Source: a virus. From it: DNA of 17,129 bases. Shown here piece after piece: positions 3,494 to 3,630 of this stretch. Each line of letters starts with the position of its first letter. Position 1 is the stretch's first letter. A program made the position numbers and the translations under genes. Location of the stretch: UHGV virus genome UHGV-0039940; one strand, given 5' to 3'. The notes beneath the pieces were generated by a model. The model saw only the letters and a program-made list of their open reading frames with translations. It was not told the DNA's origin and searched no databases.

Positions 3494-3630
3494 AACTTTG
3501 GTGGTGTGGTAGGTGGGAGACCCATTTCGACCTGTTTCGGCCTACTTCAATTCGGCAATAGTCCCGCAGGCCTCGCCGCTTTACGTGCGACATATTCCCG
3601 TCCATGAACCCTTCACCACACCCCAAAGTT
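3494..3630 (-). promoter_or_regulatory. Long-range inverted repeat in the N leader, abutting the N Shine-Dalgarno; candidate RNase III-type translational control stem
   Basis: aactttggtggtgtgg (3494-3509) pairs with ccacaccccaaagtt (3616-3630), enclosing about 105 nt. Confidence 0.4.

Follow-up and report, generated by a model that had tools for sequence, protein, structure and literature searches.

A long-range helix in the pL leader of a lambdoid phage, probably the counterpart of the RNase III hairpin of the lambda N leader

In phage lambda, cleavage of the N leader by RNase III prevents N-mediated repression of N translation. The cut sites reportedly go back to Steege et al. in 1987, with Kameyama et al. 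in 1991 and Wilson et al. in 2002 also named as sources. PMC5725501, which cites Wilson 1997 and 2002, describes for lambda a repression of N translation by N and Nus factors bound at NutL, a highly structured intervening leader, and a distance from NutL to the ribosome-binding site (RBS) that is too great for simple steric occlusion. In the case of suhB, the downstream gene is translationally repressed by a boxA/Nus complex on its leader, probably via an RNA loop to RNA polymerase, and the authors of that work explicitly compare suhB autoregulation to lambda N (PMC5725501). Unlike the N leader, suhB lacks both an RNase III helix and a boxB/N component.

A further comparison is provided by boxC, a poorly characterised alternating-GU element found after boxB in lambdoid nut sites and after boxA in rrn leaders (PMC6614797, PMC2724277). 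In rrn operons boxC is part of the 5' strand of the leader-trailer helix targeted by RNase III (PMC10250234); the antitermination complex is believed to keep it close to the RNA exit channel, placing it to pair with the emerging trailer (PMC10250234, PMC8632103). RNase III action in the 5' leader also raises the translation of E. coli adhE and lambda cIII (PMC5371410).

The DNA analyzed here, referred to as the window, is a stretch of 17,129 nt from the virus genome UHGV-0039940, and the part under study is a lambdoid immunity and early-left region on the minus strand (Table 1). The transcript start was placed at 3720, the A of ATCAGCAGGA, because the first 10 nt of the leader (AUCAGCAGGA) are identical to the start of lambda pL RNA; a homologous pL and +1 are annotated in the HK106 record. 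The leader of N is 98.6% identical to that of 933W, whose record places 'nutL' over the stretch homologous to the small hairpin just 5' of boxB. The boxB pattern gave two matches, one in each nut site, against 0.03 expected. No canonical boxA (CGCUCUUUA) was visible in the leader. At nutR a small hairpin, GGAC-AUUC-GUCC, lies directly 5' of boxB (6455-6475, plus strand), likewise with no canonical boxA visible. A small hairpin without canonical boxA at both nut sites is consistent with the 933W/H-19B-type nut architecture.

Table 1. Features of the pL leader, the N gene and the related immunity-region elements of the window
Feature	Position	Strand	Sequence or description	Evidence or remark
cI-type repressor	6170-5448	-		Peptidase_S24 + HTH
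nutR boxB	6477-6491	+	TCGCTGACAAAGCGA	matches nutL boxB
pL-like sigma-70 promoter	3727..3755	-	TTGACC, 17 nt, TACTAT	promoter scan
Small hairpin just 5' of boxB	3663..3678	-	GAUUC-GAAUAU-GAAUC	MFE and centroid; belongs to 933W/H-19B-type nutL
nutL boxB	3644..3658	-	GCGCTGACAAAGCGC / GCGCUGACAAAGCGC	homologous boxB annotated in HK106 record
Local alternative hairpin	3623..3638	-	CCAAAG-UGAA-CUUUGG	fold; uses outer half of 5' arm
5' arm of helix	3615..3633	-	GUGAACUUUGGGGUGUGGU	contains boxC-like element
GU-rich boxC-like element	3614-3624	-	GGGGUGUGGUG	downstream of boxB, in 5' arm
Predicted RNase III cut, 5' arm	3622..3623 (3623 / 3622)	-	CUUUGG^GG	homology to lambda +88/89
Hairpin interior	3511..3614	-	structured, 104 nt, "132-nt class"	~91% identical to phi80 and VT2phi_272 leaders
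3' arm of helix	3491..3510	-	ACCACACC-A-CCAAAGUUCAU	bulged A at 3502; fold, repeat search, covariation
Predicted RNase III cut, 3' arm	3499..3500 (3500 / 3499)	-	CC^AAAG	homology to lambda +197/198
N Shine-Dalgarno	3484..3489	-	AGGAGG	sequence; N AUG at 3478
N antiterminator gene	3095..3478	-	127 aa, 933W/H-19B type	Pfam PF25694 N_peptide, E = 2.3e-15

A sequence-only reading of this DNA had pointed to two complementary arms upstream of the N Shine-Dalgarno (SD), one just below the nutL boxB and the other abutting the SD. Both the complementarity and its setting held. On the minus strand, which is the sense of the N mRNA, 3630-3616 reads AACTTTGGGGTGTGG (also written AACUUUGGGGUGUGG) and 3509-3494 reads CCACACCACCAAAGTT (also written CCACACCACCAAAGUU); the two stretches, spaced by 106 nt, form 15 bp and leave A3502 bulged out. 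The repeat search split this pairing into two adjoining pieces. The full helix was found to be longer than first described: 3633-3615 pairs with 3491-3510 over 19 bp around the same bulged A3502, and a weaker extension of 3 bp joins 3612-3610 to 3511-3513. It begins 10 nt downstream of boxB and ends 1 nt (C3490) upstream of the SD. Within the window no second copy of the helix was detected, nor does nutR carry one beside its boxB.

The same reading had called for a secondary-structure prediction of the leader, and the long-range stem was favoured: it was present in both the MFE and the centroid structures when 286 nt and 272 nt of the leader were folded, with helix pair probabilities of 0.86-1.0. 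The best duplex between the 26 nt adjoining the SD and the upstream leader had an energy of -34.8 kcal/mol, a value reached by none of 2000 dinucleotide-preserving shuffles (mean -16.9 +/- 3.9, best -30.0), and the z-score of the whole-leader fold was -3.58. These results confirm that the inverted repeat is real and goes beyond chance. The helix is also predicted to be thermodynamically dominant in the leader, in a model that describes equilibrium folding and lies outside co-transcriptional kinetics and the competing local hairpin described below.

The leader was aligned with the lambda pL leader. Three islands of identity were seen, namely the transcript start, CTTTGGGGTGTG and CACACCACCAAAG, and the rest was dissimilar. 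The helix base, CUUUGGGGUGUG / CACACC-A-CCAAAG, is identical to that of the lambda N-leader helix, bulged A included, and the lambda leader folds into the same bulged helix, +81..+96 pairing with +187..+203 around a bulged A195. The lambda RNase III cuts, reportedly at +88/89 and +197/198, fall inside these identical strands. Since both strands of the helix base are identical to those of lambda, the element is considered homologous to the lambda site. The parallel with the lambda stem had been drawn earlier as one of analogy; the identical base, the equal position and the covariation described below carry it further, to homology. The inverted repeat is thus probably the closing helix of the lambdoid N-leader RNase III hairpin and an orthologue of the lambda element, with the RNase III part of this assignment made by homology.

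Transferred to the window, the two predicted cuts together would leave the canonical 2-nt 3' overhang, which served as an internal consistency check on the lambda cut positions. After the predicted 3' cut the N mRNA would retain a leader of 21 nt, and the lower stem left behind would consist of 9 mostly A-U pairs. As in lambda, the element lies in the pL transcript after boxB and before the N SD, and a closing helix of about 20 bp, or two helical turns, holds an interior of about 100 nt. The differences from lambda are the unrelated hairpin interior, the shorter distances from boxB to the helix (10 nt as against 17) and from the helix to the SD (1 nt as against about 6), a nutL of 933W/H-19B type with its extra hairpin and without canonical boxA, and a different N allele of 127 aa. 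RNase III cleavage and regulation are here predicted by homology to lambda.

This kind of element is textbook lambda biology, and the present instance is ordinary though unannotated. The hairpin is unmarked in the 933W, HK106 and phi80 records, where only nutL is marked, and no Rfam family covered 3491-3633 at the gathering threshold, a permissive scan giving a match at chance level (E = 2.5). In the part of the literature searched, where absence is not proof, no paper was found on RNase III processing of the 933W/H-19B-type N leader.

The conservation of the helix was analyzed by searching IMG/VR with a degenerate pattern of the helix base and a gap of 85-115 nt. At least 120 contigs were matched, and the matches listed comprised 45 distinct hairpins. 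Among these listed matches the helix base stood upstream of lambda N, 933W-type N, P22-like N (61% identical to phage L gp24 and 76% to the N of Cronobacter ENT47670), Hafnia-like N (a further type, 74% identical to Hafnia phage proteins) and others, and in most of them the 3' arm ended 17-23 nt upstream of the ATG. The helix base is present in the pL leader in phages of the lambda, P22, phi80, 933W, Hafnia and Cronobacter types. Relatives identified independently of the pattern also carried the helix (Louie, PhiR12_2, Oslo, SPN9CC, S107, MII_001, ST2-8624, phage L, ENT47670 and the Hafnia phage yong1); in these, inner stems of wholly different sequence were nevertheless paired, as in GGGGUGAAUGC/GUAUUCACC, GGGAUGCGAUG/CAUCGCAUC and GGGUUGCAGGUAG/CUAUCUGUAAC.

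Covariation was determined on an ungapped alignment of 41 distinct arm pairs over the proposed helix of 20 pairs. Standard pairs filled 93.5% of the cells, in an alignment whose sequences had for the most part been collected with a pattern requiring both arm cores; sliding the partner strand by 1-3 columns lowered the figure to 38-45%. The tests that are unbiased in this respect are the outer 7 pairs, the inner 6 or so, the R/Y position and the phages found independently of the pattern. Compensatory changes on both sides were seen at 12 of the 20 pairs, and none of 500 shuffles reached the observed value on any of five covariation measures. The R/Y position, the sole core position left free by the pattern, was occupied by G-C in 30 cases, A-U in 7, G-U in 2 and A-C in none. 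These comparisons argue strongly that pairing has been kept by compensatory change across leaders that differ in N gene, boxB and interior.

Part of the 5' arm can pair in another way. A second CCAAAG (3638-3633) pairs with CUUUGG (3628-3623) around a UGAA loop, with an energy of -4.8 to -6.4 kcal/mol, and this local hairpin, a competitor of the long-range helix, forms in the fold of a partial transcript that stops short of the 3' arm. An equivalent was present in 23 of 25 distinct upstream contexts, single local hairpins being weak and not significant against shuffles. In P22-like and 'MIKPHTIKE'-type leaders a G precedes UUUGG and the upstream copy is CCAAAC, so that the local pair is kept (C-G to G-C covariation); in the same leaders the long-range partner is a G-G mismatch, accounting for five unpaired cells at column pair 12/53. 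Because the local hairpin ends exactly at the predicted RNase III cut, it may, as a lead for further work, cap the 3' end of the nutL fragment after cleavage. An intrinsic terminator at this place was rejected, the terminator scan being empty in 3491-3640 and no U-run following the local hairpin. Lambda has a weak terminator, 'tL0' (PMC7315355), of which the local hairpin might be the counterpart.

The proximity of the helix to the SD raises the question of how it would act on N translation. The sequence-only reading had noted that in lambda a stem in the N leader occludes the N RBS, and had proposed that an analogous structure here would couple N synthesis to RNase III or to N binding at nutL. 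In the simplest explanation by occlusion, the stem alone blocks the 30S subunit at the N RBS in cis, N bound at nutL plays no part, and RNase III activates translation because it takes the stem away. The helix does end 1 nt from the SD, G3488 and G3487 can pair with C3637 and C3638 (p ~0.62), and opening the footprint from -20 to +13 was calculated to cost 16.2 kcal/mol in the full leader as against 6.7 after the predicted cut. To that extent simple occlusion is weakly supported. The SD and AUG themselves, however, were largely unpaired in the ensemble: the unpaired probabilities along the SD were 1.0, 0.31, 0.24, 0.99, 0.68 and 0.02, those of the first two AUG bases about 0.98, and the pairing of SD and/or start codon that defines an RBS-sequestering stem was not what the fold gave. 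Accessibility was nearly equal before and after the predicted cut (mean unpaired probability over the 15 nt around the SD 0.60 and 0.58, respectively), opening of -13..+13 differed by only 2 kcal/mol (8.65 before, 6.6 after), and the helix overlaps only the upstream part of the 30S footprint.

Comparison with other leaders points the same way. Direct sequestration is not conserved, since the helix stops 6-10 nt short of the SD in lambda and many relatives, and lambda repression is attributed to N and Nus factors at NutL in the relevant passages of published work (PMC5725501). The leaders of adhE and lambda cIII resemble the present one as RNase III-activated mRNA leaders but hold the RBS inside the structure, whereas here the SD and AUG are mostly unpaired. 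Simple occlusion is the main rival to lambda-like control; we consider it improbable and favour lambda-like control.

Lambda-like control of N in this phage could proceed as follows. Once the 3' arm has been transcribed, the helix would form and fold out about 104 nt, and boxB with bound N, Nus factors and RNA polymerase would be brought within about 12 nt of the N SD. With spacings of 10 nt between boxB and the helix and of 1 nt between the helix and the SD, folding would put the N-boxB complex right at the RBS, closer than in lambda, and N would repress its own translation as it does there. Host RNase III would then cut the helix at CUUUGG^GG and CC^AAAG, and the remaining A/U-rich lower stem would fall apart, helped by the local hairpin CCAAAG-UGAA-CUUUGG. 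The N mRNA would keep the short leader of 21 nt, unstructured and untethered from nutL, and N translation would be de-repressed. N output, and hence the balance between lysis and lysogeny, would follow cellular RNase III activity.

Both RNase III cleavage and N autoregulation in this phage are inferred by homology with lambda, and confidence in the autorepression step is lower than in the identity of the element and its RNase III part, because the nutL of the window is of a type without canonical boxA. The 933W/H-19B-type nutL presumably has reduced Nus-factor requirements; together with the lack of canonical boxA, this means that repression by N, Nus factors and RNA polymerase in the lambda style may not transfer unchanged.

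Expression after infection or induction begins with N, on which all delayed-early transcription depends. Stx-converting relatives that share this leader (933W-type, 98.6% identical) ultimately depend on N for the expression of Q and toxin as well. Should the hairpin function as its lambda counterpart does, the output of N would be linked to RNase III activity in the host and thus to growth state. Our alignment could also serve as the seed of an RNA family model.

The interior of the hairpin behaved differently from its base. Among the matches listed, 14 unrelated interior classes were found within the same 13-bp bulged helix base, in hairpins of 70-154 nt. Phage phi80 has a window-type interior together with a different nutL and a different N of 98 aa, and in contig L010 and phage Louie a window-type interior sits between lambda nutL and lambda N. 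Because the same base holds unrelated interiors and the same interior occurs with different nutL and N, the helix base is, as far as the sequences tell, a fixed frame and the interior an exchangeable cassette that is swapped separately from nutL and from N. When the interior was analyzed for a consensus fold, competing and weakly supported helices were obtained, both with RNAalifold and in a brute-force covariation scan.

Two candidate roles for the interior were rejected. A tRNA-like interior had been considered; ARAGORN called no tRNA in 17 loci or in the window, and Rfam found none in L079. The interiors of L079 (37-175) and L046 contain D-arm-like and T-arm-like strings (TAGCTCAATTGGATAGAGC ... 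GGGTTCAAGCCCC). A coding interior, represented by a 65-aa ORF with a TTG start that runs through the hairpin (3429-3626), was discarded in view of stops in 7 of 25 near-identical variants and of the unrelated sequence of the other classes.

VT2phi_272 (L003, 1501-1632) and similar Stx phages have a phi80-like nutL and a window-type hairpin. In these leaders no N ORF starts within about 150 nt downstream, and the next annotated gene, about 300 nt away, encodes a Rha-family regulator. The N gene may have been lost or replaced in leaders of this type.

The layout of the leader also recalls that of the rrn operons. In both, a GU-rich boxC after a nut-like site, here after the nut boxB, forms the 5' strand of a long-range helix that is a target of RNase III (in the N leader by prediction), and the helix closes once the enclosed RNA has been transcribed (PMC10250234, PMC8632103). 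The rrn helix differs in enclosing a functional rRNA of 1.5 kb and in serving ribosome assembly; the N leader encloses about 104 nt of RNA without known function, and the consequence downstream concerns mRNA translation. The N-leader helix thus repeats the rrn layout on a small scale, which suggests a way in which pairing over a range of 106 nt might arise efficiently as the RNA is made. Placing boxC in an RNase III helix would offer a simple rationale for a conserved nut element whose described role is still unclear.

A broader reading would make the 13-bp bulged base a universal processing clamp of enterobacterial lambdoid pL leaders, with unrelated structured RNA cassettes exchanged inside it by recombination and a conserved local hairpin capping the nutL RNA that stays on the antitermination complex after the cut. 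We hold this generalization to be doubtful. Were it true, phage boxC would gain a defined role, forming one strand of an RNase III helix as its rrn counterpart does, and the excised cassettes would possibly be functional RNAs.

It appears highly improbable that the element works chiefly through its excised interior, a structured RNA of some 124 nt with a trans or decoy action, and that the helix is no more than an rrn-like processing clamp. Phages that differ in their N genes do share a highly conserved window-type interior (91% identity to phi80), and the architecture resembles the rrn boxC leader-trailer helix around 16S rRNA; against this, the 14 interior classes share no common sequence, the interior has no match to an Rfam family and its consensus fold is poorly supported. 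We know of no trans function of the lambda fragment.

Equally improbable is the proposal that the conserved arms are mainly recombination 'linker' sequences at lambdoid mosaic boundaries, their complementarity having little RNA function: arms of 12-13 identical nt do surround 14 unrelated interiors swapped among phages with different nutL and N, but a linker needs no complementarity to a partner, the non-conserved outer and inner extensions covary so as to keep pairing (double changes at 12 of 20 pairs, and the counts at the R/Y position), and the position of the arms relative to boxB and SD is fixed. A linker role and an RNA role are not mutually exclusive.

The surroundings of the leader hold further elements of the immunity and early regions. 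Three small genes lie between cI and pL (3975-5438, minus strand), where lambda has rexAB, with a terminator-like hairpin behind them at 3968-3947. Of their products, that of 113 aa (5438-5097) contains DUF3024 and matched PDC-S43, a candidate defence family of PADLOC (E = 7e-42); no significant family match was obtained for those of 162 aa and 206 aa. Just 3' of N is a gene for an Nmad5 protein (nucleotide modification associated domain 5; 2410-3033, minus strand; Pfam E = 1.3e-70). Elsewhere in the window, on the plus strand, a weak tRNA match (32.6 bits, 13574-13643) was not called as a tRNA by ARAGORN, and Rfam matched c4-a1b1 (10609-10662), isrK (10622-10699), C4 antisense RNA (10725-10809) and STnc100 (14475-14679). 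The pL operon itself contains another known RNA switch, the cIII thermoregulator element, which matched Rfam Lambda_thermo at 2140-2198 (minus strand) with 88.5 bits.
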